Source of the DNA: an uncultured Fibrobacterota bacterium
GTDB lineage: Bacteria; Fibrobacterota; Fibrobacteria; Fibrobacterales; Fibrobacteraceae
Direction of reading: 5' to 3'
NCBI GenBank assembly: GCA_903876665.1
Contig: CAIRAY010000133.1
Span: 7,742-39,741 of the forward strand
Length of the DNA: 32,000 bases
Positions within the stretch are counted from its first letter, which is position 1. Every line of letters begins with the position of its first letter. The translations under genes and the position numbers were made by a program. Below are positions 5,950-31,129 of the stretch, piece by piece. Under the pieces are notes generated by a model. It saw only the letters and a list, made by a program, of their open reading frames with translations. It was not told the origin of the DNA and ran no database searches.

Positions 5950-6160
5950 AAATCTCAATCATGCGTGGATAGTCGTTAGAAAATACATTTTCTTGAAAAT
6001 AGTCGAACCAGTCCTGAAAGAATTTGGAAAGCCGAATTTACCTGGCCAAACAATGGGCCGTTAAGCAAAATGCCATGTAAATGGGAAAAATATGTGTTGT
6101 GTGTATTTCCCAAGAAGGAAGGGGGAACGTTTGCCGTAGTGTGGTTTCTTTCTCTTTCCA

Positions 6161-11079: not shown

Positions 11080-11561
11080 GCAGTTGCTCCGAGGATTGCG
11101 CCAGCATTGAGGATTACTAGCGGGAGAGGGTCCAATCGAACCACACCTTCGACATAAGAACGGTATTGGGCCAATAGGTGAGAGGGGGCATCCTCAATAC
11201 GGGAAGGCTCAACCGTCACAATGTCCCCTACGGAACCCACAAGGAATCCGACGGGAATCGAACCCAAATAATCGAGGTCGAAATTTGGAGTATAGTCGGA
11301 AACAGCTTCGATCTCACTTGTGGTTTTGAGAATGATGATTTGGGAGTCGTCGGTGATCTGTTGTTCGGAGCCTCCCAGGCTTACCCGGAGGTCTAGTACC
11401 ACCACGACCTGGCCGCGAATGTTGACAACCCCGCTCACATCCCCGACTTTCAATGGCACGGGAGTAATGTGGACCGCAGGGGTAATTTCTTTTACTAGGC
11501 GGATGTCGAATCCGAAGAGTCCACCGGGTACTTGAAAAGAGACGAATTGTTGATGTTTCAT
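11076..11561 (-). CDS. cheW: CheW-like coupling protein
   Basis: MKHQQFVSFQVPGGLFGFDIRLVKEITPAVHITPVP...VSGVVNIRGQVVVVLDLRVSLGG. True start likely ATG 11561 (ORF track extends to 11636). ATGA overlaps with both neighbours (11558-11561 and 11076-11079). Confidence 0.9.
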   Translation of the reverse strand: MKHQQFVSFQVPGGLFGFDIRLVKEITPAVHITPVPLKVGDVSGVVNIRGQVVVVLDLRVSLGGSEQQITDDSQIIILKTTSEIEAVSDYTPNFDLDYLGSIPVGFLVGSVGDIVTVEPSRIEDAPSHLLAQYRSYVEGVVRLDPLPLVILNAGAILGATA

Positions 11562-14500
11562 GGTGAAAATTCCCGAACCCGCGCCAAAAGGGACTTCACA
11601 GCTTCGCCTAGCATAGGTAAGTTGCTTTTGGTACAAAAGTCGTCGAACCCTGCGTCCAGGGTGCGTGGCCGCATGATTTTTTCGTCCATGGCTGAAATCC
11701 CTAATAGCGGAATATGACTGAAGGCTTCGCTGGATTTAAGGTGCCGCGCCAAATCGAGCCCGTCCATGACTGGCATTTCAATGTCGCTGACCACGCAACT
11801 CACTTCGGTGTTGCGAATGATCTCCAGTGCCTCTTTGCCATTGTTTGCCGTGAGAACCTCGAGGCCGATTCCCCGCAGGTAGGATGTGACAAGGGCCCGA
11901 TAGAGGAAAGAGTCCTCAGCAAGAATGATTCGATTCGCTGCGGCATTGGGCATGTCCAACGAAGACATCCAGCCAGGTTCCACGATTTCAACCAGGGCGC
12001 AAAGGTCCAAAAGGGTAGTCGCGAACCCATTCACAATCTGAGAACCAATGATGGCAGCCTGGTCCGTGGAATGGATCAAATTGGCGTTTTCGACTTCCAC
12101 GATGCCAATGATACTGGAAGCCGCGATCCCCACAGGCTGGCCGATTTTGGGGATAATGACATGCAGGAATTCGTGGTCGTAGAGGGAGGATATGCCCGTG
12201 ATGGCTTGTTCGATGCGAACAAGGGGAATCAGGGAATTTCTGAAGCAAAGGAACTCACGCCCTCGAGCAATTTGGATTTCCTGAATCCGGATCTCATCTA
12301 CCCGCATCAGCAAGCTCAAGGGCACGGCAAATCGTTCTACTCCGTTAGTAAACACCAACATCTTTTGCTGTTCATCCTGGTTGGCAAGGACTTTGGTAGT
12401 CTGGGTTTCGGTCTTTTCGCAGCGGATTCCCCCGGTGCGGGCCAGCTCGGAAACATCTAGAATGAAGGAGGTGGTGCCATCTCCCAGAACCGTTACGCCC
12501 GCATATACCTTGCTCGCCTTGAGCTTGTCATGCAGAGGTTTGACAACGATTTCCTCTGTATCCACAATTCGCTCCACGCATAGGCCAAAGGTGTCGCTTC
12601 CGACGCGCAGCACGATGATGTAGAGGGCATTTTCCAATGCCACCCGCCGATCACGGATTTCTGCCCGCTTCCCGGTGTCGAATTCGCCTCCTTTTTGTCG
12701 GCGATCGGGAGCTTCCTCGCGACGATCCGCCACAATATCTCCGGAAATCGGATCAACGTAGGAGCGAGGGATGTTGAGAACCTTGGAAAGCCGGATAAGG
12801 GGAAGCATGTTTCCCCGGAGCCAATAGACTTCGCTCTCATCGATTTTCTGGATGCATTGGTATACCTCGTCTCCATGCAACCACACCACTTCGATGACAT
12901 TCACCTGGGGAACGGCAAAACACTGTTCCTCTACGGCGAGGATGATGGCTGGAATAATGGCAAGGGTCAGAGGGAGCTGAATGGATATGGTAGATCCGAA
13001 CCCGACCACGGAGGTGATTTCGACGATTCCACCCAATTTTTGTAAGGAGGCCCGGACCACATCCATCCCCACGCCACGTCCTGAAACTTCGGTGATCTGT
13101 TTTGCGGTGGAAAACCCGGGCAGGAATATGAGATTGAGGGCTTCGCGGTCCGAGAGGTCTTCCACCTGGGTTGGGGTCATTAAGCCTTTTTCAACTACGG
13201 CGGCCCGGATTTTTTTGGGATCGATTCCTTTCCCATCATCGGAAACCTGGATATTGACCAAGCCTGCTTGATGCTGGGCTACGAGCGAGATATGACCGAC
13301 AGCGGATTTACCACCCACTCTTCGCTCTTCGGGGGATTCGATTCCGTGATCTACCGCATTACGCACAAGATGCATCAAGGGCTCAACCATGCCATCGACG
13401 ATGCTTTTGTCCAGTTCCACATCGGATCCGCTGATGGTCAGTTCCATCTCTTTGCCCAGGCTGCGACTCAGGTCCCGAATCACCCGGGTAAACCGTCCAA
13501 ATACGCTTCCGATTGCCTGCATGCGGGTTCGCATGACGATGCGCTGGATGTCGGAGGTCACCACATTGAGGCGTTGGTTTACTGCAGAAATTTCGCGGGT
13601 ATTTCCGCTTGACTGCAACTGGGCCGAGCGGTTGCGGACCACAACCAGCTCCCCAGCAAGGTTCATGAGTTTGTCTGCAATTTCCACCGAAATGCGGACG
13701 GTTTGTTCCTGGGAGCGCGAGGCGGGCACCTGCTCCCGGGAAGTTGCAGGGACGGGTGGTTGTGGATTCGCCGTGACTTGGACTTTGGGTACTTCGATGG
13801 GTGGAGGCGCGCTTTCCGCCGGAGCGGGAAATTCTTCCGGCGTGTAATGAACAAAGGACAGCGGCTCGATTTGCAGCCCAGGAAACAGAAGGTCGGGATC
13901 ATCGATCATGGTGGCGAGAAGAAATGAGCAATCGGAAAAGGAAGGGGGAGCTGCAGTGAATGCGCTTGCTTCGGGTTTTGAATCCAGCAGGATTCCGAGG
14001 GATCCAATGGATTCATAGAGTGCAACAGGAGTGGCGGAGCTGCGGGAACATTCCTTATGGGGGTCTAGCAGGATTTCAAAAATATGCAAGCCTTGACTCT
14101 TGGCTTCGCTGGTGTCGTATTTTCGCAAATCAAAAATGGTGGCCGGCACCGCTTTGACGGGATTGGATTGGGGTGATGCGGACTGGGTGGGCTGTTGCGC
14201 AATCCTTTGCAGGTGCTGGAGGATTTGATCCACATCTCCAAGAACGCCCTTTCCGGATAAAATTCCACTTTTTAGCTTGTCCATTCCCTCAAGCAAAGTC
14301 TGGGTGATTTCGGAATTGGGCAAAAGGGTACCGTCTCGGAGCAGACCAGCTACGCTCTCCATGGCGTGGGCGAATTCCTTGACACGGTCGAAGTCCACGC
14401 AGGCTGCACCCCCCTTGATGGTGTGCAGAGCTCGGAACAGGCGGTTCACGGTCTCCTTGTCTTCCCCTGCGCCTTCTTCCAGGGCAAGGATATCCTCCTC

Positions 14501-14563
14501 GGCAGTCACCAGGTGTTCCTGTGCCTCGGTGATAAATTCCTTGATTAAATTGGCGAGATTCAT
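11558..14563 (-). CDS. cheA: CheA hybrid histidine kinase: Hpt - dimerisation/HATPase - two CheW-like domains - C-terminal REC
   Basis: Hpt: LFRALHTIKGGAACV. Kinase: LVVVRNRSAQLQ, MEPLMHLVRNAVDHGIESPEER, DDGKGIDP, GRGVGMDVVR. First CheW-like domain ends ...FILDVSELART; a second follows (MLVFTNGVERFAVPLSLLMRVDEI). REC: RIILAEDSFLYRALVTSYL...SCVVSDIEMPVMDGLDLARHL. Confidence 0.93.
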   Translation of the reverse strand: MNLANLIKEFITEAQEHLVTAEEDILALEEGAGEDKETVNRLFRALHTIKGGAACVDFDRVKEFAHAMESVAGLLRDGTLLPNSEITQTLLEGMDKLKSGILSGKGVLGDVDQILQHLQRIAQQPTQSASPQSNPVKAVPATIFDLRKYDTSEAKSQGLHIFEILLDPHKECSRSSATPVALYESIGSLGILLDSKPEASAFTAAPPSFSDCSFLLATMIDDPDLLFPGLQIEPLSFVHYTPEEFPAPAESAPPPIEVPKVQVTANPQPPVPATSREQVPASRSQEQTVRISVEIADKLMNLAGELVVVRNRSAQLQSSGNTREISAVNQRLNVVTSDIQRIVMRTRMQAIGSVFGRFTRVIRDLSRSLGKEMELTISGSDVELDKSIVDGMVEPLMHLVRNAVDHGIESPEERRVGGKSAVGHISLVAQHQAGLVNIQVSDDGKGIDPKKIRAAVVEKGLMTPTQVEDLSDREALNLIFLPGFSTAKQITEVSGRGVGMDVVRASLQKLGGIVEITSVVGFGSTISIQLPLTLAIIPAIILAVEEQCFAVPQVNVIEVVWLHGDEVYQCIQKIDESEVYWLRGNMLPLIRLSKVLNIPRSYVDPISGDIVADRREEAPDRRQKGGEFDTGKRAEIRDRRVALENALYIIVLRVGSDTFGLCVERIVDTEEIVVKPLHDKLKASKVYAGVTVLGDGTTSFILDVSELARTGGIRCEKTETQTTKVLANQDEQQKMLVFTNGVERFAVPLSLLMRVDEIRIQEIQIARGREFLCFRNSLIPLVRIEQAITGISSLYDHEFLHVIIPKIGQPVGIAASSIIGIVEVENANLIHSTDQAAIIGSQIVNGFATTLLDLCALVEIVEPGWMSSLDMPNAAANRIILAEDSFLYRALVTSYLRGIGLEVLTANNGKEALEIIRNTEVSCVVSDIEMPVMDGLDLARHLKSSEAFSHIPLLGISAMDEKIMRPRTLDAGFDDFCTKSNLPMLGEAVKSLLARVREFSP

Positions 14564-14580
14564 TCCTTCTCCGCCAAGAT

Positions 14581-16515
14581 TCAGGCAATAATTTTTAGGA
14601 CATCATTCAGCTTCTCGACATCGCTGGAGACCTGGTTAAGCGAGTTGAACATGTCTTGTATGTCTTCCGTGAAGGTCATGGCGGCGGTTTTGGATTGGTG
14701 CATGATTTCGGCTGTAGTCTCCGCCATGGAAAGGGTGCCGGAAATTCTTTCGTTCACATCCCCAATGGCCATTGCCGTACCTGCAATATTTTTCGCAACC
14801 ACATTGGCGCCTTGGGCGATTTCGTTGATGTTGTGCGAAACCTGCTTGGAGGCGTGGGCGGTTTCGGCAATCTGCCGAGCGATGGCACCTGAGCCGGTAG
14901 AGGCTTCGGAGATGTTGCTCGAAATATAGTTGGTGGCCAAGGTTTGTTTCTCCACCATATCCGAAATGACTTTCTGCAGGTGGTTGATGGTATCAATGAT
15001 GGACGAAATCAAGGCAATGGCGGAAACAGCCTTTTGAGTGTCGCCCTGAATTTTTTCGATCCGGGCCGTAATGTCTTCGGTCGCGGTTGCCGTTTGTTTG
15101 GCCAGCTCCTTCACTTCGTTTGCCACCACGGCGAAACCTCGGCCTGCGTCGCCGGCACTTGCCGCTTCGATGGCCGCGTTGAGGGCAAGCAGATTGGTTT
15201 GCTTGGCGATGACCTGGATTACGCTGGTCACTTTGCCGATTTCGTTGGCGCTTTTGCCGAGCATGCCCATGATTTCAGAAGTTTCCTTGGCTGCTACGGA
15301 AGCATTCCCTGCCACGGTGGTGCCTTCACGGGCATTTTGGGCTACGCTGTTGATTGCAGTCGAGAGGTCTTTTACTGCATTGTCCACAATGCGGAAATTG
15401 CTGGACATTTGTTCGGCGGTGGCGGCCACGGAAATCATGGTGGTGCTAATTTCTTCCGAGGTGCTCGCCACGGTATTGATGTTGGTAGAAATCTCTTCCG
15501 CTGCTGTAGCCACGGTGGAGATGGAGGAAGCCATTTTCTCGGAAGATGCCGTTAGGTCCTTGGTATAGTCCTCAAGAATTTTAATGGCCTCAATGCCGGA
15601 GCTAGTCTGAACATCATTTTCCAGAATGGTGTTTGCCATCTTTTCGGCTAAGGATTTCTGCTTGTCTGTCGAGGATCCAATGGCCTTGGCGCAGGTGGCG
15701 ATTTGTTGTTGCGTTTTGTCAATAAGCTGATTGAAAGCCACAAACAGTTCCCCTAACTCGTCTTGCGAGGTGACGGCAAGGTGCTTGGTTCCCGTTTCGC
15801 CATTGTTTTGGGTCACCAGGTTTTGTACATGGAGAATTGACTTTCGCAGAGGAACGGTGATGCTGATTCCAATGCGGTAGGAGAGAGCGAGGAGTCCGAG
15901 CAGGACCAGTATTCCAAAGCCAATTAGGCCCCGCAGAAAGTTTGCGATCATCTGGTTTGCGCTGGCTTCGGAAGCCTGATTGAGCTGGTTGGCCTGGATG
16001 ACGACCTGGTCAATGGCCGCCCGGTGGGCCTTGTATTGTGGCTTCAAAGACTTTTGCAAAACTTCCTGTGCCTGGGGGTAGTTCTTGGCTGCCAGAGCAG
16101 GTAGGAATTCCCTTTTCACGACAGCATAAAACTCCATGGCCGGTTCATAGGCCTTGTCCGTCATGGTCTCTTTTAATTGCCCATCTGGCAAGGCCCGTTG
16201 CCAAAACTTATTGCGGGTTTTGTATTCGGATTCCAGGCCTTGAAGTTTGTCCTTGAGGGCCTGGGATTCACGCGGATCCCGTTCATCCGCCAGCTGTTCG
16301 ACGGTCAGGTAGGACTCGATGATATATTCTGGTGGAGGGAGGATGTCGGCAATTAGGTCTTTTCCATTGACGATTTGTTGGTAAAGATCGCCGTTGATAC
16401 GCAGGGTCATGATTGTTTTGTAGGAGGCAAGGCCGAAAATGAGCAGTGCCGCCAGAGAAAAGGCCACAATTGCAGAAATTTTCCGGGTAATGCTTAAGCG
16501 GTTGAGAATAGCCAT
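14581..16515 (-). CDS. Methyl-accepting chemotaxis protein (two TMs, small periplasmic helical sensor, HAMP, signalling hairpin)
   Basis: [28 protein letters not shown]..., hairpin tip [41 protein letters not shown]. Likely ATG at 16515 (ORF track extends to 16584). Confidence 0.93.
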
Positions 16516-16631
16516 GAGTGTTTCCTGTTTTCGGAATGATCTTTGAGGTGCGGGTATTCTACCACCAAAGCGGTTCAAAGTCAAGAGAATGGCCTGGGCG
16601 GGCTAGTAATACTGATGTTATCTTTGAAGGC

Positions 16632-17655: not shown

Positions 17656-17690
17656 AAAAATAGCCCCGTTTTGGGGTTGTTTTTCTGCTT
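17656..17690. terminator. Intrinsic (possibly bidirectional) terminator downstream of trpS
   Basis: AAAAATAGCCCC (17656-17667) pairs with GGGGTTGTTTTT (17673-17684, including G-T wobbles) and is followed by a T-rich run. Confidence 0.75.
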
Positions 17691-17706
17691 TTGCATGCCC
17701 GCCTGT

Positions 17707-17816
17707 CTTTGTCATGCCCAATTGCTTTGTCATGCCCGGCAGGGGCATCACCGCACCATTCAGCAATACTCTGTGATATGAGCCTGCCCCCGGAACAGGG
17801 GGTGCCGGGCATGACA
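17707..17816. repeat. REP-like element: two direct copies of CTTTGTCATGCCC plus 14-bp perfect inverted repeat
   Basis: CTTTGTCATGCCC at 17707-17719 and 17725-17737. TGTCATGCCCGGCA (17728-17741) is inverted at 17803-17816 (TGCCGGGCATGACA), with internal CCCCC/GGGGG. Confidence 0.75.
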
Positions 17817-17985: not shown

Positions 17986-19851
17986 TTGAAATTGCTTTCA
18001 ATTTTCCTTGCAGTTTTACTTGGGCTTTCGAGTCTGGGATTTGGCCAAGAGTCTGAAAAGGAACGCCGTTCCCGGCAATTCTCAGCTTATTATGAGTCAT
18101 TGGTAAACCAGTCGCTTACGCGGTATTACCATAACACCTCGTTCATGGTGGATGCCCGGGTGATCCTTGCCGAGCAATCCCAGGCGCTACCGGATTCCCT
18201 CGCCGCTGCCGTGGAGCCCGCAATTGAGCCTCCATCCCAAGCGGAATCTAACAACGAGTTCCGCAATCCCGATGGGCTCGAAGCCCTTCCTGGCCTTCCG
18301 GTGATGCCCGAACAAATGCGCACCGGCGGAAAACCCTTGTTCAATCTGGAGCCCGCCAAGGCCCGTTCCCCCGCTCCCAACCCAGTGACCCGCACGGAAC
18401 TTGGAATTGAGTACATCGACATTACGGTTCTGGTGGATACCGTGTACTCTCCGGAAGATGTGGAGTTCATCATGGAGCTTGTGGGCATGGTATCCAAATT
18501 GGATGATGCCCGTGGCGACCGGGTTTTTGTCCGTAAGAAGGTATTTCCTCGGATGTCCCGGGAGCTGGAATCCGAACACCGGGTCCGCAATGACAGCATG
18601 CCCCATCCTGTCGATACGGTTCATCTGGATTCACTTGCGGAGAAATCCCATCCTTGGAATGCCTATTGGGAGCAATTGCCCTCCTTGCTTCCCCTCTTGC
18701 TGATTCTGGTTTTTTTGACCGTGATTGTCGCTGTCGTGGTCCGGGGTTTGCGTAGCGCACAAATTCCACCCGAGCTGATCAAGCACCTGGAAACCTCGCG
18801 AATGCCCGTGATTCCTCCTGTGGTGGAACCGTCCAAGCCCATGCCACAAGCCCCCGAAGCTTTGGATCAGGCCAAGTTTGACACACAACGTACCGCCTGT
18901 TTGAATGCGCTCATCGGCGACCCGGTGGGTGGAGCCATGTTGCTCAAAAACTGGATTGAGGCCGACCGTTCTAAAGGCCTGAGCGACACTGCGGTATTCA
19001 TTGAATCCCTGGACACCAAGGTTCTGGAAATTCTCAAACCCCACTTCCAGCCCCAGGATCTGAAGGGCTTGCATTTGCAGATGGACGTGCAGACCATGCC
19101 TTCCCTCGAAGACCGCACCAGTCTTCTCCTTACCTTCCACAAGGAATTGCGCAATCTCCGGTCACGAAGCACGGACGGAACTATCGCCGATATTTTTGGT
19201 TTCCTTCATCAGCTTTCCACGCCTCAGCTCATGCACATTCTAAAAGACGAACCTGTGGGGATTGTGGGACTTGCCTTGGCGCAAATCCCGGGCGAGCGTG
19301 CAGGCCTAATTCTGCAACAAATGGAGCCCGACTTCCGCACCCAGGTTTTGGTGGCCATGGGTCAAATCGACACCATCCCCGTGCAAGCCTACAAAGAAGT
19401 CGCTAATCGCCTATCCCGCAAGGCTCTTGAGGTGGGGAACATGCGTTTTGTTGCTGCGGATGGCGTACAAACTGTTCTCGATATTGTTCAGGGTCTGGGC
19501 CTGGTGGAACAGGTGGAATACCTGCGTTCTATCGCCGAGCGCGACTTGAATTTGGCCGGTCGCCTGCGTCGGTTCTATGCCCTGTTTGAGGAAATTCCCT
19601 ATTTGCCCGAGCCCATTTTGGTCAAGGTTCTCAATACTTTCGAGCGGGAACAGCTCGTTTCATCCCTGGTGGGAACCGAGGCGGATTTCCGTGAAAAACT
19701 CTTGATGTCCATGCCTCAGAGATTCCGCATGGCTGTTGATTCGGGCCTGGAAAGCAAAATGGATCAGAGCCCTCTGGAAACCGAAAGAGCCCGCAAGCTT
19801 TTGCTTGGGCTTATCCGTCAAGAATTGCAGGCCGCAGGAGGTCGCACATGA
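17986..19851 (+). CDS. FliF(C-terminal)-FliG fusion-like motor protein: signal peptide, periplasmic FliF RBM3/collar-like region, one TM, cytoplasmic FliG N/M/C-like domains
   Basis: Signal peptide MKLLSIFLAVLLGLSSLGFG; FliF-like IEYIDITVLVDTVYSPEDVEFIMELVGMVSKLDDARGDRVFVRKKVF; TM LLPLLLILVFLTVIVAVVVRGL; FliF tail-like IGDPVGGAMLLKNWI. FliG_N-like AVFIESLDTKVLEILKPHFQPQDLKGLHLQMD...LLLTFHKEL, FliG_M-like QLMHILKDEPVGIVGLALAQIPGERAGLILQQMEPDFRTQVLVAMGQIDTIPVQAYKEVANRL, and FliG_C-like LRRFYALFEEIPYLPEPILVKVLNTFEREQLVSSLVGTEADFREKLLMSMPQRFRMAVDSGL. Confidence 0.78.
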   Translation: MKLLSIFLAVLLGLSSLGFGQESEKERRSRQFSAYYESLVNQSLTRYYHNTSFMVDARVILAEQSQALPDSLAAAVEPAIEPPSQAESNNEFRNPDGLEALPGLPVMPEQMRTGGKPLFNLEPAKARSPAPNPVTRTELGIEYIDITVLVDTVYSPEDVEFIMELVGMVSKLDDARGDRVFVRKKVFPRMSRELESEHRVRNDSMPHPVDTVHLDSLAEKSHPWNAYWEQLPSLLPLLLILVFLTVIVAVVVRGLRSAQIPPELIKHLETSRMPVIPPVVEPSKPMPQAPEALDQAKFDTQRTACLNALIGDPVGGAMLLKNWIEADRSKGLSDTAVFIESLDTKVLEILKPHFQPQDLKGLHLQMDVQTMPSLEDRTSLLLTFHKELRNLRSRSTDGTIADIFGFLHQLSTPQLMHILKDEPVGIVGLALAQIPGERAGLILQQMEPDFRTQVLVAMGQIDTIPVQAYKEVANRLSRKALEVGNMRFVAADGVQTVLDIVQGLGLVEQVEYLRSIAERDLNLAGRLRRFYALFEEIPYLPEPILVKVLNTFEREQLVSSLVGTEADFREKLLMSMPQRFRMAVDSGLESKMDQSPLETERARKLLLGLIRQELQAAGGRT

Positions 19852-20972
19852 AGCGCTTGATTATTGCCCTTGCTCTTTTATGCGCCTGGCCCTCGTTTGC
19901 GGAAGACCTGAAGGCTCCGGCTTCCTCCAAAGAAAAGCAAAAAGTTCTTTTCTACGAAGACATGTACGGAAGCCGTACCGGCATCAAGCAATTCTATGAC
20001 ATCCTGAGTCAGATGCAGCGCGCCATCGGCGATCTTCCTCCCGACATCCAGCGCCTCGCCATGTACAATCTGCGTGTGGACCGCGATGACTTTACCCCGG
20101 GGATGATGAAGTTTTTTCAAGGAAAAATCGAAGAAACCTTTATCAAATATGGCCGCCGTCAGATCGTTGCCGCACCCGAATTGCGCTCCACTCGCATTGT
20201 TTCCACCGATACCTCCTTTGTCCTTTCCAATACCTTGCCTACCCAGAATGACCTGTGGAAAATTGGAGAAGCCTTGCGCCTGGACGGATTCATCGAAGGC
20301 AATTTAACCCGCAGCGAAATGGGGGATATTATGTTGAGCCTGAAGGTATTCCGCCACAAAAGCGCCGAGGTGGTGTGGTCGGGAAGCTTTGTCTCTGGGC
20401 CCAATGAGGATAAATACTATTTCCCCCTTATGGATATTGGAACTCGACTTTCCTTTGGCTATTGGCCGGTTTCAAAATACACGGATGAAACCGAAACTAT
20501 TCGGGAGCCGACCCTCAAATTGGACATGTACCAATACGCGGTGGAATTTACCGTGAGTGAAGCCGCAAATAGCAACCGGAGACTTTACTTGGGCGCAGCT
20601 GCTGGGCTAAGTTTTCTTTTCCCGGTGGCCGATAATCCCCGGGATTCCGTGGTGGGTGACTTGCCTTCGAACTGGGTGGGCATTGCTGGGGCCGATTTGG
20701 TGTATGTATTTGTTGCCAAAGAGAATTTTGACGATGGGTATTGGCTTGGGGCCTATTTAGGAATGCGGGTGTATTTCCCACAAAAATTGATCATCATCCG
20801 TCATGGCTACTCCAGTCGAATTTCTCGCCACTTCATTCTTTCCGCAGGGTTGCAATTCATGCCACTTCTCGATCAGCTGATTGCAAGCAAGTCTCTATTG
20901 TCCACTACGGGTGATTACGAGCTTAAACTGCAGAACCCTACCTATGAAGTGAGTATTCAGTATGCCTACTAA
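19848..20972 (+). CDS. Predicted outer-membrane/periplasmic protein in the motor operon; N-half loosely FlgO/CsgG-like, C-half beta-barrel-like
   Basis: Signal peptide MKRLIIALALLCAWPSFA; IGEALRLDGFIEGNLTRSEMGDIMLSLKVFRHKSAEVVWSGSF resembles the FlgO/CsgG core. Amphipathic C-terminal strands end in aromatic ...YEVSIQYAY. ATGA overlap with the upstream gene. Confidence 0.5.
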   Translation: MKRLIIALALLCAWPSFAEDLKAPASSKEKQKVLFYEDMYGSRTGIKQFYDILSQMQRAIGDLPPDIQRLAMYNLRVDRDDFTPGMMKFFQGKIEETFIKYGRRQIVAAPELRSTRIVSTDTSFVLSNTLPTQNDLWKIGEALRLDGFIEGNLTRSEMGDIMLSLKVFRHKSAEVVWSGSFVSGPNEDKYYFPLMDIGTRLSFGYWPVSKYTDETETIREPTLKLDMYQYAVEFTVSEAANSNRRLYLGAAAGLSFLFPVADNPRDSVVGDLPSNWVGIAGADLVYVFVAKENFDDGYWLGAYLGMRVYFPQKLIIIRHGYSSRISRHFILSAGLQFMPLLDQLIASKSLLSTTGDYELKLQNPTYEVSIQYAY

Positions 20973-21747
20973 TCCTTTTTGGTTGCCACGGATCCTGGGC
21001 CTAAGCATGGTCTGCGCTTTGGTGGCTTGCTCCAGCAATCCTCCCCAGGAAGAGGGCTACTTGCCTGGTTCCGCATCGGATGATTCCGCTGGCTGGGCCC
21101 AAACTCCGATCCGTCCCGTACAAAAGCAGAGACCCGTTTCGGGGATCACCATGACGTACCACAATGATGCGTCGACATTGCAGATGACGATTGACCCATA
21201 CGATGAAAATTTGAACATCGAAATGAAACGGAGTCCGCACACCCAAGAGGTGGCTGTTCCTGAAAAACCGCGCCGGGATACGGTCTTCATGATGTCCCCG
21301 CAAGCAGCCTCGGCTCCTACAAATGTATCGGTACAAGCTCCTCCGACTTCCGTGAATGTGCAATTACAGCTTCCTCCAGAGCGTCGGGATTCCTCCAAGG
21401 CGGTTCCAGCGATTGATACTGCCGGGCTCGGCCAAAAGCAGCTGGACCTGCTCAAATCCAAGGAGAAGGAATGGGCAGATGCGACCGATGAGGTGATCAC
21501 CAATATTCGTCTGGCCCAAGAATACTTCTACAAACAGGACTATTCCTCTGCGCTTCGTCTGGTAAAGATCGCAGAAGAAAAGCGCCCTACCGCCGAGGGA
21601 TATGCCCTGCGGGGAAGCATCATGTATATGTTGCGGGATAACGGCGCGGCCCGTTTTTACTGGAGCCAGGCTCTAACGCTCAATCCTAATCTTCCCGATG
21701 TAATCCAAGCGCTTTCCAAGCTGGATCAGACGAAGGAAGGTCGCTAA
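20962..21747 (+). CDS. Lipoprotein with C-terminal TPR-like repeats
   Basis: Lipobox in ILGLSMVCALVACSSNPP; C-terminal NIRLAQEYFYKQDYSSALRLVKIAEEKRPTAEGYALRGSIMYMLRDNGAARFYWSQALTLNPNLPDVIQALSKL is TPR-like. 11-bp overlap with the upstream CDS. Confidence 0.65.
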   Translation: MPTNPFWLPRILGLSMVCALVACSSNPPQEEGYLPGSASDDSAGWAQTPIRPVQKQRPVSGITMTYHNDASTLQMTIDPYDENLNIEMKRSPHTQEVAVPEKPRRDTVFMMSPQAASAPTNVSVQAPPTSVNVQLQLPPERRDSSKAVPAIDTAGLGQKQLDLLKSKEKEWADATDEVITNIRLAQEYFYKQDYSSALRLVKIAEEKRPTAEGYALRGSIMYMLRDNGAARFYWSQALTLNPNLPDVIQALSKLDQTKEGR

Positions 21748-22562
21748 TGCCTCTTTCACTGTCCACTCTTGCCGGAGTGATTTTTGGAACCATTGTGGTG
21801 ATCTGGGGTATTTCCACTGCAACCACCAACACGAGGGCCTTTCTGGATCTGGGAAGTTTTTTGATTGTGGTGGGTGGAACGTTGACCTCGACATTTATCG
21901 GGTTCCGGGCCCGCTACATTTTTAAGGCGTTGCTCGCTCTTCCGCTGATTTTTCTGCGTCAGCGCATTAATCCAGAAAGCCTGCGTGATGATATTCGTAA
22001 GGTCATTGATTGGAATAAGCGAATTCAGGAAGGTGGGGCAAAGGCTCTGGATGTTTTGGCGACGGATTCGAAAGAGTCGGATTTTGTGCGTTACGTATTT
22101 GGCCTGGTCGCAACGGGATACAAGGAACATGAGGTCGAAGCATTTTCTACCACACAGATTGAGGAAGAATATTTCCGTGGCCTTCAGCAGCCCAATATTC
22201 TAGCCTACATGGCTGCTGCCGCCCCGGCTTTTGGAATGCTCGGTACTTTGATCGGTCTGATTGCGATGTTGGATAAATTGGATGATCCATCCAAGATGGG
22301 ACCCGGCCTTGCTCTCGCCCTGATTACCACCCTCTACGGAGTGATCGCTGCCCGCTTTGTCTTTTTACCTGCATCTACCAAGGTAAAGCAGATTTATGGC
22401 ATTCAGCGTTTTCGCAACTATTTGCTTCTCGAGGGGGTGGGCCTAATCATGCAGAAGCGGTCGGCCCTGTACATTCAAGATCGGTTAAACTCTTTTATGG
22501 ATACCAAGTATCGACTTTCGGTGCTGGATGAGAAGACCAGCCAAGCCAGCAAGTCCAAGTAG
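21747..22562 (+). CDS. motA: MotA-like stator protein
   Basis: FLDLGSFLIVVGGTLTSTFIGF; ILAYMAAAAPAFGMLGTLIGLIAMLDKLDDPSKMGPGLALALITTLYGVIAARFVFLP. TAATG junction with the upstream CDS. Confidence 0.9.
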   Translation: MPLSLSTLAGVIFGTIVVIWGISTATTNTRAFLDLGSFLIVVGGTLTSTFIGFRARYIFKALLALPLIFLRQRINPESLRDDIRKVIDWNKRIQEGGAKALDVLATDSKESDFVRYVFGLVATGYKEHEVEAFSTTQIEEEYFRGLQQPNILAYMAAAAPAFGMLGTLIGLIAMLDKLDDPSKMGPGLALALITTLYGVIAARFVFLPASTKVKQIYGIQRFRNYLLLEGVGLIMQKRSALYIQDRLNSFMDTKYRLSVLDEKTSQASKSK

Positions 22563-22568
22563 GTCTCC

Positions 22569-23249
22569 ATGTCTCTTAAGAGTCAACCCAATCGCTACCG
22601 CAATGATGAAGGATATGATTCTGCGGGCATGGATGAATGGCTGGGAACCTATTCCGATATGGTTACTCTGCTTCTCGCCTTCTTTGTTTTGATGATGGGA
22701 ATTTCGAAGGTGGAACCCGCATTGTGGGAATCCATGAAATCAGGTCTTCGTTCCGAAATTTCTGGCCAGGAAAAAGTAAAAACACCCCTCGCTGAAATTA
22801 AGCATGACTTGGATTCTCTTCTCTCGGTGGAGCAAGCCCAGAACCTGGTAAAAATTGAAATGACCCAAGAAGGGATTGTGATGAAATTTGCCAGTTCCGC
22901 CTTTTATCAGGCGGGAAGCGCCGAGGTCGGAGCCCAAGCCAAAGGGATCATGGATCGGGTTGTTGTTGCGATGAAGAATATCGATTATTACCCGTTTCAA
23001 ATTGATATTGAAGGGCACACGGACAATGTCCCCATACATACCGAACGATATCCCTCCAATTGGGAACTTTCCGTGTCTCGGGCAACCAACATCGTGAAGT
23101 ACATGCTCGCCCAAGGGGTTGCCCCCGATCGTCTCAAGGCGGCTGGTTACGCGGATACCAAGCCAATTCTCCCCAACCTCGATTCATTGGGGAAGGGAAT
23201 CGACTCCAATCAGGCCCAGAATCGGCGCATTGTCGTCCGTATTCATTGA
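22569..23249 (+). CDS. motB: MotB-like stator protein with OmpA-type peptidoglycan-binding domain
   Basis: WLGTYSDMVTLLLAFFVLMMGIS (plug/TM with the channel Asp), then FQIDIEGHTDNVPIHTERYPSNWELSVSRATNIVKYML...RLKAAGYADTKPI...QAQNRRIVVRI. Confidence 0.92.
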   Translation: MSLKSQPNRYRNDEGYDSAGMDEWLGTYSDMVTLLLAFFVLMMGISKVEPALWESMKSGLRSEISGQEKVKTPLAEIKHDLDSLLSVEQAQNLVKIEMTQEGIVMKFASSAFYQAGSAEVGAQAKGIMDRVVVAMKNIDYYPFQIDIEGHTDNVPIHTERYPSNWELSVSRATNIVKYMLAQGVAPDRLKAAGYADTKPILPNLDSLGKGIDSNQAQNRRIVVRIH

Positions 23250-23260
23250 TTTTAAACGCC

Positions 23261-23977
23261 ATGCCCAGCCAATACAGCGAGCTTCATGGCGTTCATATTC
23301 GGAAGACCATCGAGAAATTGTGTCGTCGCATTCACGAGCGTTTTCCTGGGTCCGGACTGGGTGGAGTTGCTGCGGAGCTGGAGCAGGTTTCTGCGGAAAA
23401 TGAACGAGTGGTGAGCCAATTACAAAAGCCGATTTGGTGGCTGCGAGTGCTCACCGTGATTGCGATTGGCTCCTTGGTTAGCTTGTTTTCTTGGGTCGCC
23501 TTTCGGTTGGCAACCCTTGCGCTTACGGGTGCAGCGACTCTTTCCGACGTTCTGCAGGGCATGGATGCGGGCATCAATGAAGTCGTCTTTCTTACTTTGG
23601 CAATAGCCTTCCTGGTGTCTTTGGAGAATCGTATCAAGCGTGGCAAGGCCTTGCGCATCCTGCATAAATTGCGGAGCATTGCGCATGTGGTGGATATGCA
23701 CCAACTTACCAAGGATCCAGAATATCTATTATATCCCGAGGCTCCTTTGGCCAATTCTCCGGAGCGCTTGTTGGACCGACATCAATTGGTCCGCTACTTG
23801 GATTACTGTTCCGAATTGCTTTCCTTGACCGCAAAACTTGCCGCATTGCACGGGCAGTCCATGCAGGATGCCCAGGTGCTAGAAACGGTCAATGATTTGG
23901 AAAGCCTTGCTTCGGATCTCTCCCGCAAGGTTTGGCAGAAGATCTCCATCTTGAGATCCTCCGGCGATGGAAATTAA
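23261..23977 (+). CDS. Conserved-looking membrane protein, last gene of the motor operon
   Basis: ATG at 23261 (MPSQYSELHGVHIRKTIEKL...), 12 nt after the motB stop; the ORF track's earlier start at 23060 lies inside motB. Two predicted TMs (WWLRVLTVIAIGSLVSLFSWVAF; VVFLTLAIAFLVSL). Unknown function. Confidence 0.7.
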   Translation: MPSQYSELHGVHIRKTIEKLCRRIHERFPGSGLGGVAAELEQVSAENERVVSQLQKPIWWLRVLTVIAIGSLVSLFSWVAFRLATLALTGAATLSDVLQGMDAGINEVVFLTLAIAFLVSLENRIKRGKALRILHKLRSIAHVVDMHQLTKDPEYLLYPEAPLANSPERLLDRHQLVRYLDYCSELLSLTAKLAALHGQSMQDAQVLETVNDLESLASDLSRKVWQKISILRSSGDGN

Positions 23978-25994: not shown

Positions 25995-28900
25995 CTATTT
26001 TCTTTCCAGCAAAATCATGGGTGTCGTGGCGTCCAAAATGGATTCCCATTCCCTGCGGATTCCCTCATATTCCGATGCGTCCGCGTAAACCGACAGAGTT
26101 TCCCAGCGCATGCTGCTCGAGCTGTTCTGGGTTGTTGGCTTCTGGTCCAGCTGGATGTAATTCAGAGCATCCAACCCTTGGGATGCTTGCTTCAGTGAAA
26201 TCCCGAAACGATCTGGTCCACGGACCTTGAGGCTCCAGGAGAAGGTGGTTTCGTGGGGTAAGCGCAAGGGGTGATGGCGTTTGGTGATTTTGGGTAAACG
26301 CATGAAGCTTCTCTCCCAAATATTCGGGAACGCCCCTTGAATCCGGTCGGGACTCTGCCCAAAGTAATGAGCGGAAGTAAAGGTGACAATGAGGACCAGC
26401 GGTTTTGCAAATTCCTGCACGTTCTCTACTTTTAGGCTATTGATGGTGGCGTCAGGAATGGCTTGTTCGAGCCAGTTTGCGAGATAGCGGGTCCGTTCCT
26501 TTTGATCGCGGGAAATCATTTGTGCGCGCATGGCCGAGCCAAATTTGCCAAATAGAGTCAAGCTATCACGAAATTCGGCTTTTCCGGTGGAGTCGATGTA
26601 GAGGCTATGAGCGATGAAGGCTTGGTGTTCCTGGTCTTTTTCGAGAACCGGAGTCACGGAAATTTGAGAAGAATCCCCGTTGATGATTAGCGAAACCTTG
26701 CCTTCCAGATCTAGCGCAATGGGTCTGCGCGCTCCAGCCTTGTCGGTAGGATCTAGCCAAAGATCAGGCCAGTTTTTGCCTGCAGGCACATAGAGGACCA
26801 TGTGGTTGAACTGTTGTATGGTGGGTAAGGCCTCCGAGCCTGGTTCCTCCAAATTGACCAAGGCCATGCGGGACTTGATTCCAATGGTTTCCAGCATTTC
26901 CTTGAGGAGGAGGGACTGATCCTTGCAGTCGCCCTGGCGTTCGTTCAGGGTTGCCAGGGAAAGACTTGGAATCAAGGAATGCCCGCCAAAGGCGATGTCG
27001 CGATAGCGGATGTTTTCGCGCACCCAATCCGCCATGCGGAATATGGTCTCTTGATCGAGGGCGCGGCTACCACGTACTTCAAAGGCCTTTTCCCGTACCG
27101 GAATACTGGATTTAAACTGGTGCTGGATCATGTTCTGGTAATCCCGTCCCACCTGTTCCCAGCTCTGTTTTCCGGCGATCAGGACTCCCGCCCCGAAATC
27201 CCGGTAAACGGGCATAAATACTTCCTTGCGAATGACCACGGGAGCATCCACCGTCCATTCGATTCCACCCGGAACAGCCATTCTTTCAATGGGGCCGTAT
27301 TCTTCGGTAACGATGCTCGAGGTGTCGGTCAGCAGACGCAGAATGTCTTTGCCCACGGGAATGTCCTGTGAAGCCATGTGATGGGTGAAAGGAATCACCC
27401 CGGTATTTTCAATGCTGGTGCGGGAGACTTGAAAATAGATGAAGTCCCCGGGCTTGAGGTCGGTGAGGGGAAGGTGTGCCATTTGGGCATCGCTACCCGA
27501 TCCAGCCTCATTGAGGTAGGTGATGTATGCCTCTTTCACCGACCAGCGGGTTTTGAGCTTCCAACTGGAATCATAGACTTCAAGCGCATTCACAAATATG
27601 CGGTCGAATCCAGGGAGGAATGTGTAGGTAAATTCCTGGAAGAGGCCTGCGCCCCGCGGATCCAAAATCTCGATGAGGGCTTGCTGGGTACGGATCCAGG
27701 ACGCATTCTTGTTGGTCTTGAGAGCCTCTTCCTGCCAGTGGACCACGGCGGGAAATTCCTCGGCCCGGGCGGAATCGACGAGTCCCGCCTTCAATTCATC
27801 CTTCAGGTTACGGGGGCGGGAAACCACGGGTTCAATGGTGGCTTGCAAGGCCCGGATGTCCGCTTTTCCCAGAAACGCCTTGGTCGCGGAAAGGAAACTT
27901 TTCGCATCTTCATCGTCTGGCTTCAGTTCCAAAGCCTTATGCAGGGTGTTCTCTGCCATGCGGAATTGTTTCAAATGGAACTGGGTCTTCCCGCGGGCAT
28001 TCCAAACTTCAAAATTGTTGCTGACTTTGGGAAGTAATTCATCGGAGATGGCCAATGCCTCCTGATGTCTCCCCAAGAATGTGAGCGCATCGATTATGGC
28101 AAGTCCAATATCTTTGTTCAGAGTGAAACGACGTTTTACCGAATAAAGAAGATCCACCGCCTCTGAGTATTGATCGAGGCCCATCAAGGTTTTTGCGACA
28201 TATACGCCAAGCCGTGCCGAGGGTTGCTTGCGGTAAAGACCTTGCACGATCTCCAAGGATTGGGTGCGTTGGCCGATACCCCAAAGGGCGTCCGAGGTGT
28301 TGATCACCAGCTCGGGATCATGTGGGCTATATTGGAGTGCCATCTCATAGTATTGTAGAGCCCGATTGTAATCATGCAGCGATTCGTACATTTCGCCCAG
28401 AATCGCAAGCAGCTTTCCGCTCTTTTTGATCAAGTCGATTTGGGATAGGAAATGGTCTGTTCCCGGGCCGAATAAATTCCTCATTTGGTAAACAAATCCA
28501 CAATTGATCAAATACAAGGGTTCGGAAGGATCCATGTGGTTTGCTTTTTCAAAATAGGACAATGCGACCAGAGGCTGATCTTCGGCTAGGCGCAACAAGC
28601 CGACTTGATTTACGATGCGTGCGTTGAATTGTTGCAGGCGGGCCTGCTGGGGGAGACCTCCGGCCGGAACGGGCTCCAGCTTGAGACCATCAAGGGCGCG
28701 GTCAATCGCTTTGCGGTATCCACCGGCCAAAGAATTTTGGGTCCAGGTCGCGATCAGGATTCCGCGCCCATTTTCGTAAAAGAATCGTCCCCGATAAAAG
28801 AAGTCATAGCCACTGATCAGGCGGACGCTTTGGAAATCCTGGGTGAATACGTCCCCACTGCCTTTTTTTGTGGTTTCGAGATCGGGCGAGTCCGGGTCGA

Positions 28901-29786
28901 GTCCCAGGCGAACCATGAATACCCGGAAAAGGTCCCGGCTGGATACTTCCCCAGGGTCGACAACGGCGCCATATACGAACAGGGAGATTTCTTCGGAGGC
29001 GTTGGTGAGGGTCAAATCAGGATCGGAATTGATGGCCTCAAGACTTGTCCAGCGGTGCCAAAGGGTGTCTGGGCTTGTCCAGCGGTAACCCAGGGTCGAG
29101 GACTGGTAATTCTGCATGCGCTCCGGACTGACCGCAGGTCCTTTGGCTTTGAGGAGGTTCTGGTCGATTTGCAAGCCCGCAAAAAAGTTTTGGAATAGTC
29201 TGCGGAATTCTGTCCGGTCTCGGACCTGGTCTGCCCCACTGAGCGCTAAGGTAAAAACCTGGTTGCCGGCAAGGGCGGACAAGCCAACGGATTGAACGGG
29301 CTGGCCATCTTTTTCGCTGGCGCTTTCCCATCCCATCCCAGAAAGTTGGCCCTGGTCCATGGGCCTCAATTCTGAATAATGGATTTTCAGACTCCCGCTT
29401 TCGCGGCTTTGAATTTCAGCCTGGGCGCGGTCGGCAACCTGGGCGGCTTCATCGGGGGAGACCTCGTCCGAGGAGAGGACGGCGCGCAGCCCGGATTTGG
29501 GGTCGAAAAATTCCAGGGCCGCCAAAGGGTTGCTGGGATCGCTGACGAGGACCCATTCGGGGCCAGGAGCCACAAAGCGAAAGCCAGATCTTTGCAGATC
29601 GAGTGTTACCCCCGTGCCTTGGTCGAGAACCTGCTCCGCGGCAGTTGGAATCTCGCTCGGGGAGGTCTTGGGGGCTGCCCGTGAGGTTGTTTCGGTAGCC
29701 TTGGAGGGTTCCGCTGTGGCAGAGGGGTGCTGGGAGCAACCTAGGGCCAGGAGGAGGGGGAGCAATGCGCAAGTCTGGTTTCTCAT
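25995..29786 (-). CDS. Large TPR lipoprotein with DUF3857/transglutaminase-like region
   Basis: Lipobox MRNQTCALLPLLLALGCSQ. Multiple TPR-like helices (ALSYFEKANHMDPSEPLYLINCG, ALQYYEMALQYSPHDPELVINT, AENTLHKALELKPDDEDAKSFL). Transglutaminase-like ADWVRENIRYRD...LNERQGDCKDQSLLLKEMLETIGI...FNHMVLYV...WLDPTD. Confidence 0.8.
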   Translation of the reverse strand: MRNQTCALLPLLLALGCSQHPSATAEPSKATETTSRAAPKTSPSEIPTAAEQVLDQGTGVTLDLQRSGFRFVAPGPEWVLVSDPSNPLAALEFFDPKSGLRAVLSSDEVSPDEAAQVADRAQAEIQSRESGSLKIHYSELRPMDQGQLSGMGWESASEKDGQPVQSVGLSALAGNQVFTLALSGADQVRDRTEFRRLFQNFFAGLQIDQNLLKAKGPAVSPERMQNYQSSTLGYRWTSPDTLWHRWTSLEAINSDPDLTLTNASEEISLFVYGAVVDPGEVSSRDLFRVFMVRLGLDPDSPDLETTKKGSGDVFTQDFQSVRLISGYDFFYRGRFFYENGRGILIATWTQNSLAGGYRKAIDRALDGLKLEPVPAGGLPQQARLQQFNARIVNQVGLLRLAEDQPLVALSYFEKANHMDPSEPLYLINCGFVYQMRNLFGPGTDHFLSQIDLIKKSGKLLAILGEMYESLHDYNRALQYYEMALQYSPHDPELVINTSDALWGIGQRTQSLEIVQGLYRKQPSARLGVYVAKTLMGLDQYSEAVDLLYSVKRRFTLNKDIGLAIIDALTFLGRHQEALAISDELLPKVSNNFEVWNARGKTQFHLKQFRMAENTLHKALELKPDDEDAKSFLSATKAFLGKADIRALQATIEPVVSRPRNLKDELKAGLVDSARAEEFPAVVHWQEEALKTNKNASWIRTQQALIEILDPRGAGLFQEFTYTFLPGFDRIFVNALEVYDSSWKLKTRWSVKEAYITYLNEAGSGSDAQMAHLPLTDLKPGDFIYFQVSRTSIENTGVIPFTHHMASQDIPVGKDILRLLTDTSSIVTEEYGPIERMAVPGGIEWTVDAPVVIRKEVFMPVYRDFGAGVLIAGKQSWEQVGRDYQNMIQHQFKSSIPVREKAFEVRGSRALDQETIFRMADWVRENIRYRDIAFGGHSLIPSLSLATLNERQGDCKDQSLLLKEMLETIGIKSRMALVNLEEPGSEALPTIQQFNHMVLYVPAGKNWPDLWLDPTDKAGARRPIALDLEGKVSLIINGDSSQISVTPVLEKDQEHQAFIAHSLYIDSTGKAEFRDSLTLFGKFGSAMRAQMISRDQKERTRYLANWLEQAIPDATINSLKVENVQEFAKPLVLIVTFTSAHYFGQSPDRIQGAFPNIWERSFMRLPKITKRHHPLRLPHETTFSWSLKVRGPDRFGISLKQASQGLDALNYIQLDQKPTTQNSSSSMRWETLSVYADASEYEGIRREWESILDATTPMILLERK

Positions 29787-30973: not shown

Positions 30974-31008
30974 GGGCCCTGCTCTTCGGAGCGGGGTCCT
31001 TTTCTTTT
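30974..31008 (+). terminator. Intrinsic terminator downstream of gapA
   Basis: GGGCCCTGCTC-TTCG-GAGCGGGGTCC (11-bp stem with wobble pairs, UUCG loop) followed by TTTTCTTTT. Confidence 0.85.
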
Positions 31009-31129
31009 GGGACTACAAAAGCTAAAGGCGAGTATATATTTCTTCTACTGGGTCCAACTTTCCCAGAATTTCCTTGAAACTGACTCCTGGTTTGCGCATA
31101 ATCAAATCAGACACACCCTAGGAGGCTGT

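Follow-up and report, generated by a model that had tools for sequence, protein, structure and literature searches.

This study concerns six closely packed genes on the forward strand of a 32-kb stretch of DNA, which we call the window, from an uncultured Fibrobacterota bacterium (contig CAIRAY010000133.1). A sequence-only reading, made without database searches, had proposed that these genes encode a reduced or non-flagellar rotary motor, and all six open reading frames (ORFs) are present as it described them. Gene 1 (17986..19851, 621 amino acids (aa)) encodes a natural fusion of the third ring-building motif (RBM3) of FliF with FliG, and is the proposed rotor. Gene 2 (19848..20972, 374 aa) encodes a secreted protein in which an α/β domain resembling TolB-N, LpoB and PelC is followed by an OmpA/OmpW-like β-barrel, while gene 3 (20962..21747, 261 aa) encodes a lipoprotein with a long linker rich in proline and serine and tetratricopeptide repeats (TPR) at its C-terminus. 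The products of genes 4 (21747..22562, 271 aa) and 5 (22569..23249, 226 aa) are the A and B subunits of a stator, the former MotA/PomA-like with four transmembrane (TM) helices and the latter of the MotB type. Gene 6 (23261..23977, 238 aa) encodes a protein with two TM helices that belongs to no known family.

The junctions between the genes also agree with the earlier description. There is an ATGA overlap between genes 1 and 2 (19848/19851), an 11-nt overlap between genes 2 and 3 (20962/20972) and a 1-nt TAATG overlap between genes 3 and 4 (at 21747), and gaps of 6 nt (22562/22569) and 11 nt (23249/23261) precede genes 5 and 6 respectively. The ORF of gene 6 formally reaches an upstream TTG at 23060; given that an independent gene call on an identical contig begins at the ATG at 23261, we consider the latter, which yields the 238-residue protein, to be the best start.

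The fusion protein, the stator and the envelope proteins

From its N-terminus, the gene 1 product consists of a signal peptide or first TM helix (TM1; residues 1-20, 17986..18045), a periplasmic RBM3-like domain (residues 24-188, 18055..18549), a second TM helix (TM2; residues 231-255, 18676..18750, part of a long helix at about 223-257 in the AlphaFold2 (AF2) model) and the N, M and C domains of FliG. The FliG_M domain (19225..19440, residues 414-485) is recognised by Pfam PF14841 with E 4e-10, and the FliG_C domain, which carries the torque helix (19528..19821, residues 515-612), by PF01706 with E 5.5e-11. The best sequence matches in the PDB are the FliG proteins of Aquifex, Thermotoga, Helicobacter and Salmonella; the gene 1 sequence alone reaches them at E 4e-12, and a profile built from 39 family members at 8e-30. 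In the AF2 model built from the family alignment (mean predicted local distance difference test (pLDDT) score 82), residues 290-617 are cytoplasmic and all-helical, and Foldseek aligns this part over 315-325 columns with full-length FliG in the PDB (E 5e-9 to 1e-7; 3hjl, 8umx_B and 8wiw_3 at 5e-9 to 3e-8). Therefore a FliG_N-like helical domain is present as well, at 18853..19185 (residues about 290-400), and PF14842 (FliG_N) is matched in 27 of the 39 family members. Against TIGR00207, the FliG equivalog model, gene 1 scores 62.4 bits where the cut-off is 226.7 bits. The FliM-binding motif EHPQ(R) is replaced in gene 1 by KDEPVG, and its Glu (E422) alone is kept across the family, which argues against a FliM/FliN switch.

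The periplasmic domain has the order α-β-insertion-β-α-β, with the insertion at residues 62-140. It terminates in RGDRV...FP (RGDxV...FP is conserved in the family), which matches the C-terminal end of Pfam PF08345. This FliF C-terminal family is matched at E<=0.01 by 17 of the 39 family members, four of them above the Pfam cut-off of 23.8 bits, and the match falls in the β-α-β half of the domain. Foldseek likewise relates the periplasmic part to FliF RBM3/S-ring chains (8zdt_A, 6sd1_A, 7d84_A and 8ftf_A) with a probability of about 1.0. PF01514, which covers RBM1 and RBM2 (the SctJ-homology region), was matched in none of the 39 members, and the periplasmic part amounts to only about 210 aa. 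The insertion lies between β1 and β2, which we take to be the position occupied in FliF RBM3 by the β-collar; it is proline-rich, shorter than the β-collar and modelled with pLDDT <50. Within it is an invariant motif, LPGLPxxP (18286..18309), which is a candidate contact for periplasmic or outer-membrane partners. With the N-terminal 290 residues as the query no unfused FliF-like relatives were found, whereas the full-length query in the same type of search returned 52 proteins; we ascribe the empty result to the word-index prefilter, not to biology. The FliF/FliG chimera proposed by the sequence-only reading is thus upheld by the Pfam matches to FliG_M and FliG_C, by the Foldseek matches to FliG and FliF RBM3 and by PF08345 at the level of the family, and the structural match of the protein to FliF and FliG is good rather than poor.

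Gene 4 matches Pfam MotA_ExbB (E 1.8e-21). Its best PDB match is PomA (8bri; E 5e-27, residues 4-261), and it aligns end to end with PomA and with the MotA proteins of Clostridium and Bacillus at E 5e-27 to 2e-17. Among NCBIfam models, those for MotP, PomA and MotA match at E 1e-36 to 1e-25 (MotP 3e-36; MotP and PomA within 1e-36 to 1e-34), compared with 5.7e-4 for TolQ and 0.036 for ExbB, though the equivalog cut-offs are missed by both subunits (MotA best 124.9 against 394 bits; MotB best 155.6 against 283). The gene 5 product has a MotB plug (PF13677, E 6e-13), an OmpA-like domain (PF00691, E 1e-14) and one TM helix, which bears the channel Asp. This residue, MotB D30, and MotA P160 and P208 (the equivalents of E. 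coli D32, P173 and P222) are invariant in 57 of 57 orthologues. To judge from these sequences, the stator is of the flagellar type and not of the Tol/Exb/Zor type, and the earlier expectation of a MotAB pair with intact channel and peptidoglycan-binding motifs holds for the plug, the channel Asp, the Pro residues and the OmpA-like domain alike.

Assignments to other ion-driven systems were tried and rejected. For the Zorya system, PADLOC returned only a generic, MotB-like ZorB for gene 5, with no ZorA, ZorC or ZorD and nothing for the other genes. A Tol/Exb assignment was rejected on the TolQ, ExbB and MotP values given above; gene 2 offers only a TolB-N-like domain, fused to a barrel. GldLM/PorLM was rejected in that no NCBIfam or Pfam match to GldL, GldM, GldK or GldN was found in genes 1-6 at E<=0.1.

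At the expected rotor–stator interface, FliG R579 in the torque helix (the equivalent of E. coli R281) is invariant in Fibrobacterota and Balneolaceae; of six further lineages, four have R there, one has K and one has T. Its canonical partner in MotA, the equivalent of E98, is D102 in the window; an acidic residue occupies this position in 15 of 16 Fibrobacterota and, among four further lineages, in three (loci L069, L072 and L075), and the position is variable in Balneolaceae. The equivalents of FliG K264 and R297 are lost, and those of D288 and D289 are S586 and G587 in the window copy. At the D289 position all 41 Balneolaceae sequences carry Glu, while the window and 17 of 22 Fibrobacterota sequences carry Gly. 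Taken together with MotA position 94, the pairing is K/R with E in 41 of 41 Balneolaceae and Q with G in Fibrobacterota. We also noted a Trp in the cytoplasmic domain of MotA, W89, which lies five residues ahead of the R90-equivalent position and does not vary among the 57 orthologues from Fibrobacterota and Balneolaceae; of four further lineages only L072 keeps it, with A, A and L in L069, L070 and L075 respectively.

Gene 2 matches no Pfam family. Its AF2 model (pLDDT 80) comprises an α/β domain at about residues 43-183 and a β-barrel at about 196-373. By Foldseek, the former resembles TolB-N and the C-domain of LpoB (E 5e-6 to 2e-5; TM-score 0.7), as well as GNA1162 and PelC (PDB 9h80), and the latter resembles OmpA-TM, OprG, OmpW and Ail. 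Signal peptides are found in the family, and the C-terminal residue is aromatic in 57 of 59 members (F in 56, Y in the window copy). From the model, the protein is predicted to span the outer membrane as a β-barrel and to place its TolB-N/LpoB/PelC-like domain in the periplasm. Gene 3 encodes a lipobox (LVAC), a low-complexity linker and the C-terminal TPR. The envelope parts foreseen in the sequence-only reading are therefore recovered, as the signal peptide and predicted barrel of gene 2 and the lipobox of gene 3. In the flagellar motors of Vibrio and Campylobacter, TolB-N-like (FlgT) and TPR (PflA/PflB) proteins scaffold the stators, and because of this precedent genes 2 and 3 could encode stator scaffolds rather than outputs.

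Distribution and conservation of the five-gene cassette

A pattern scan of one genome per GTDB species yielded 63 loci, in which gene order was established by tblastn with the window proteins. The order gene 1, gene 2, gene 3, MotA, MotB is identical in every locus that is long enough, across about 60 GTDB species. About 20 of the 63 loci are from Fibrobacterota metagenome-assembled genomes (MAGs) and the large majority are from Balneolaceae (Balneola and Gracilimonas among them, as well as several closed chromosomes such as OZ245822.1 and CP051242.1), with Gracilimonas tropica DSM 19535 (L039; NZ_AQXG01) and Balneola sp. EhC07 as cultured carriers. The same order is found in an Elusimicrobia MAG, a KSB1 MAG and an unassigned metagenome contig. 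In a Gammaproteobacteria MAG (L072; JAOUHV010000005.1, 5191-18819) the five families are present in a different order, namely a Sel1/SPOR protein, MotA, MotB, the gene-2-like, the TPR and the gene-1-like protein, and the homologues of genes 2 and 3 were confirmed there by profile searches. Genes 1-5 co-occur across at least five phylum-level lineages. The synteny that had been suggested for Fibrobacterota does exist for these five genes, yet it is not specific to that phylum, being commonest in Balneolaceae and extending to Elusimicrobia, KSB1 and Gammaproteobacteria.

The sixth gene does not belong to this unit. It is missing from all other loci, being found only in near-identical contigs, such that the six-gene unit of the sequence-only reading must be reduced to genes 1-5. 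Gene 6 is a lineage-specific add-on, which is probably co-transcribed with genes 1-5 yet lies outside the conserved module. Nor did clustering of 1,862 flanking ORFs from 65 loci reveal any other conserved sixth partner, the only flanking conservation being clade-level housekeeping synteny.

When the gene 1 profile was searched exhaustively against 1.84 billion cluster representatives (clusters at 50% identity), at least 257 clusters matched at E<=1e-30. Of the 150 best matches, most are 580-740 aa long and align over their full length, and where relatives carry a name, it is no more than 'FliG C-terminal domain-containing protein' or 'hypothetical'. Comparison of the window with relatives at 64-76% identity gives a dN of 0.2-0.5 with dS saturated, and at the sequence level the cassette appears to be under purifying selection. 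Gene order is constant even among lineages with only 23-30% identity. Our conclusion from the synteny, the distribution and the dN/dS values is that the cassette is an old, selected and self-contained five-gene module. Two divergent gene 1 homologues (724-777 aa), at L073 and L074, are flanked by TPR/Sel1 proteins; no MotAB is visible on either contig, of which that of L074 covers the flanks and that of L073 is truncated.

No other flagellar family was found among the ORFs >=150 aa of the window, in agreement with the earlier statement that no rod, hook, filament, export or FliM/FliN genes are present here. In more than 70 loci, no flagellar gene lies within ±10 kb of the cassette, and the flanks consist of housekeeping genes. 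Among the carriers, G. tropica DSM 19535 has only 17 COG-N genes and is described as non-motile (PMC4642740), and it is reported to lack flagellar-assembly genes, as are Balneola and other genera (PMC9909488). The Fibrobacteraceae are reported to have neither flagella nor chemotaxis, while other Fibrobacterota have both (PMC4704652). The module thus occurs irrespective of flagellation, with at least one cultured non-flagellated carrier.

A proposed rotor–stator machine and its alternatives

We lean, with some reserve, towards the view that genes 1-5 encode a self-contained, ion-driven rotor–stator machine assembled from core parts of the flagellar motor and working without a flagellum. The parts and their topology are established, and from them we infer ring formation, drive and coupling. 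The gene 1 product would oligomerise into an inner-membrane ring via its RBM3-like domain, as FliF does via RBM3. MotA5B2 units anchored to the peptidoglycan would use ion flow to push on the torque helix of FliG_C, and the ring would turn. The periplasmic face of the ring, with its LPGLPxxP loops, may engage the TPR lipoprotein, the barrel protein or both, in which case torque or cyclic force would be passed to the outer membrane or the cell wall. A FliM/FliN switch would not be engaged. Engineered FliF–FliG fusions give functional or ring-forming motors (PMC4768692, PMC11481574; PDB 8z4d), and these Salmonella and Vibrio constructs indicate that a covalent link between FliF and FliG is compatible with ring formation and rotation.

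The candidate outputs of such a machine are the movement or handling of a surface polymer or protein, and envelope maintenance. Hints as to the output diverge: the TolB-N-, LpoB- and CpoB-like parts suggest envelope maintenance, while the PelC-like and TPR parts, together with a single locus adjacent to Wza, Wzc and Wzy genes, suggest polymer export. The compact MotAB-driven motor of the sequence-only reading survives in its rotor chimera, its MotAB pair, its envelope proteins and the lack of other flagellar parts nearby, but not in its suggested output of gliding or surface motility, which is unsupported given that the cultured carriers are described as non-motile and that gliding is unreported for Balneolaeota (PMC5167729). 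A more far-reaching version, which we consider possible but rather unlikely, is a free-standing rotary nanomachine in which MotAB spins a FliF-RBM3/FliG ring coupled to outer-membrane proteins, with neither secretion apparatus nor filament. There are two origins that the machine could have. The first is that it is a surviving relative of a pre-flagellar 'proto-motor', from before the type III export gate and axial parts, while the second is that it is a motor which was simplified secondarily and has taken on a new role in the envelope.

Several points make us cautious about a flagellum-free motor. Ring formation and rotation of the gene 1 product are themselves what we infer, and no output component was found for the cassette. 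The Foldseek matches to FliF have weak E-values, of about 0.1 (target TM-score about 0.5), and gene 1 of the window itself falls below the Pfam reporting threshold for PF08345. The canonical charge pair of MotA R90 and FliG D289 is missing in the window (Q94/G587). We treat charge covariation between MotA 94 and FliG 587 as a faint hint only, since the difference between Balneolaceae and Fibrobacterota amounts to a single evolutionary contrast and did not hold up when four further lineages were compared, being contradicted by L069 (T with DE) and L072 (R with AA). The absence of flagellar genes from carriers is taken from published KEGG-based statements, and Balneola vulgaris is flagellated (PMC5167729). 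Finally, a complete chemosensory operon lies 1.4 kb from the cassette on the reverse strand of the window (9152-16584), with a methyl-accepting chemotaxis protein (14581-16584), a CheA with extra CheW and receiver domains (11558-14563), CheW, CheB and CheR. Because of this operon the window lineage may be motile by some means; no che operon was found beside the cassette in the other loci.

These last points bear on the possibility that the cassette is an accessory rotor/stator set for a conventional flagellum encoded elsewhere, comparable to the FliG paralogues of spirochaetes or the dual stators of Vibrio, Shewanella and Bacillus, with genes 2 and 3 as stator scaffolds like FlgT/MotXY or PflA/PflB. 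Every recognisable domain is flagellar, there is a che operon in the window, and TolB-N-like and TPR scaffolds have their precedents in Vibrio and Campylobacter. Flagella are, besides, considered ancestral in Fibrobacterota outside Fibrobacteraceae (PMC4704652), and the flagellated B. vulgaris fits the same picture. However, the cassette is present in the non-motile G. tropica, reported to be without flagellar assembly genes (PMC4642740, PMC9909488), and in more than 70 loci it never stands beside a flagellar gene. Its FliM-binding EHPQR motif is lost, and with a FliF-like ring domain of its own gene 1 would compete with a true MS ring, not join it. We thus regard an accessory set as improbable, and slightly more so than a role in envelope maintenance like that of Tol-Pal or of LpoB and CpoB, which we also consider unlikely. 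There, MotAB would energise a FliG/FliF adaptor acting on the gene 2 barrel and the TPR protein, for outer-membrane tethering or coordination with peptidoglycan synthesis and with no surface movement. Such a role would account for the folds of the gene 2 N-domain, for a CpoB-like TPR in gene 3 and a Pal-like OmpA domain in MotB, and for carriers that are non-motile; moreover, tol-pal loci are reported to be hard to identify in Bacteroidetes (PMC12204202). It is at odds with a stator that is flagellar (plug-bearing and PomA-like) rather than TolQR, and with the lack of a β-propeller and of any TolA- or TonB-like transducer spanning the periplasm, while the presence of the cassette in a minority of species makes essential housekeeping unlikely.

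Less probable again, in our view, is a motor for the export or spreading of a surface polysaccharide or coat, comparable to Myxococcus Nfs/Glt with AglRQS, or an unrecognised gliding apparatus. In L072 the gene-1-like gene is followed directly by a BBP2 barrel, a Wza-like Poly_export/SLBB protein, a Wzz/GNVR protein of the tyrosine-kinase (Wzc-like) type and Wzy_C, that is, by an exopolysaccharide export cluster. A resemblance of gene 2 to PelC, a TPR-plus-barrel combination that recalls PelB, and a polysaccharide lyase of family PL8 in the window (6161-8479), about 9.5 kb upstream of the cassette, point the same way. The linkage to exopolysaccharide genes is, however, confined to that one locus and not seen in about 60 others; the gene 2 barrel is small (OmpA/OmpW-like) and too narrow for a polymer channel, and the lack of reports of gliding in Balneolaeota noted above tells against the gliding variant. 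A last possibility is that the cassette is left over from a lost flagellum and is decaying without a function, and it is indeed common for genes to stay behind when flagella are lost (PMC12199754, PMC9909488). Here, though, the five ORFs are intact and overlapping, their order is constant across lineages at 23-30% identity, residues with catalytic or structural roles do not vary, dN is much lower than dS, and genes 2 and 3, two partners that are not flagellar, are inherited with the rest in every case. Such conservation effectively refutes a remnant, to which we give very little credence.

Compared with known systems, the rotor–stator machine that we favour is closest in its parts to the flagellar motor. 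The two share the N, M and C domains of FliG, the RBM3 fold, interrupted by an insertion where the β-collar lies, the TM2/C-terminal region of FliF, a PomA/MotP-like MotA including its cytoplasmic domain, the plug, channel Asp and OmpA-like domain of MotB, and the R281-equivalent Arg. The cassette differs in that a single polypeptide combines FliF with FliG, RBM1 and RBM2 are missing, a proline-rich LPGLPxxP loop takes the place of the β-collar, EHPQR has gone and the window copy does not retain D288/D289. It includes no FliM/FliN, export gate, rod, hook, filament or P and L rings; a barrel protein and a TPR lipoprotein always accompany it, and non-motile bacteria are among its carriers. In the Salmonella and Vibrio FliF–FliG fusions (PDB 8z4d/8z4g; PMC11481574, PMC10941966) the fused protein still forms rings, with rotation in Salmonella, but these are engineered or spontaneous laboratory constructs of full-length FliF within a complete flagellum.

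The closest natural precedent is the FliF–FliG fusion of Chlamydiaceae (PMC4768692), which is half the size of gene 1. It too joins a shortened FliF, with two TM helices and RBM-type domains, to a FliG-like cytoplasmic domain in a non-flagellated host. By its published description, it is set apart from the 621-aa gene 1, which has a complete FliG and adjacent MotAB: the chlamydial protein has about 330 aa, an RBM2-like domain and one further RBM, and a FliG_M-like region only, with no torque-generating FliG_C, and Chlamydia has no MotAB, a link to the injectisome having been proposed (PMC4768692). GldLM/PorLM is likewise an ion-driven inner-membrane motor of the Fibrobacteres–Chlorobi–Bacteroidetes (FCB) superphylum that works across the periplasm on outer-membrane lipoprotein and barrel parts with no flagellum, but it is not of the MotA/MotB type with plug and peptidoglycan-binding domain, has no FliG-like ring, and transmits force through a periplasmic GldM dimer. 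The Agl–Glt/Nfs systems of Myxococcus combine a MotAB/TolQR-like motor with TPR proteins, β-barrels and lipoproteins in gliding or in the handling of spore-coat polysaccharide; their stator is TolQR-like, with neither plug nor OmpA domain, and they have no homologue of FliG or FliF. Tol-Pal, with CpoB and LpoB, shares a 5:2-type motor, a TolB-N/LpoB-like fold, a TPR protein and an OmpA-like peptidoglycan binder, while the cassette differs in having no TolA, β-propeller or Pal lipoprotein and in its flagellar-type stator and FliG/FliF ring protein. In the searchable full-text literature we found no description of the cassette. According to a 2025 survey, 11% of non-motile species have rotor proteins but no filament, and its authors raised, without settling it, the question of another function for these proteins (PMC12199754).

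What half a motor would be good for is a question for which the flagellar motor serves as the textbook example, and the cassette is a concrete and widely conserved 'half motor', in which a fused and simplified rotor ring and a stator are tied to outer-membrane proteins instead of a rod. If it does rotate, the torque of FliG and MotAB would serve a function beyond swimming, and five proteins would provide a minimal system for studying torque generation and ring assembly. It would then join the flagellum, the motor of type IX secretion and gliding, and ATP synthase as a new class among ion-driven rotary machines. Should its FliG and MotA branch outside the flagellar clades, this would bear directly on the origin of the flagellum. 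The existence of a cultured and sequenced carrier, G. tropica DSM 19535, makes the question testable.

Leader and neighbouring features

A terminator-like hairpin (17656-17684) follows trpS and, with a 350-nt leader, parts the cassette from the upstream gene; at the other end, a convergent ychF ends 3 nt past gene 6. The leader of gene 1 contains a repeat array on the forward strand (17688..17816), comprising three direct repeats of CTTTGTCATGCCC at 17688, 17707 and 17725 (18-19 nt spacing) and, 61 nt downstream at 17803-17816, a perfect 14-nt inverted copy (TGTCATGCCCGGCA / TGCCGGGCATGACA). These repeats are a candidate binding array for a regulator. A sigma-70 promoter scan upstream of gene 1 yielded nothing, and a sigma-54 promoter in the leader, checked by eye, was rejected because the GG/GC spacing is 1 nt short.

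A few neighbouring genes recur or are of note. A TPR protein of about 1260 aa that also has DUF3857 and transglutaminase-core domains is encoded near the cassette in the window (25995-29786, reverse strand) and directly after MotB in L001 (15221-18982; 34% identity), in these two lineages only. In the Elusimicrobia MAG (L069, 5641-9773), genes for a CHASE2 Ser/Thr kinase, a PP2C phosphatase and an FHA-domain protein lie directly upstream of the gene 1 homologue, and the window encodes a CHASE2-cyclase-PilZ protein at 3676-5958, about 12 kb upstream of the cassette. At the edges of the window, a protein with a type IV pilin-like N-terminal methylation motif is encoded at 31007-31810, and a Fib_succ_major domain protein at 41-1279 supports the Fibrobacterota origin of the DNA.

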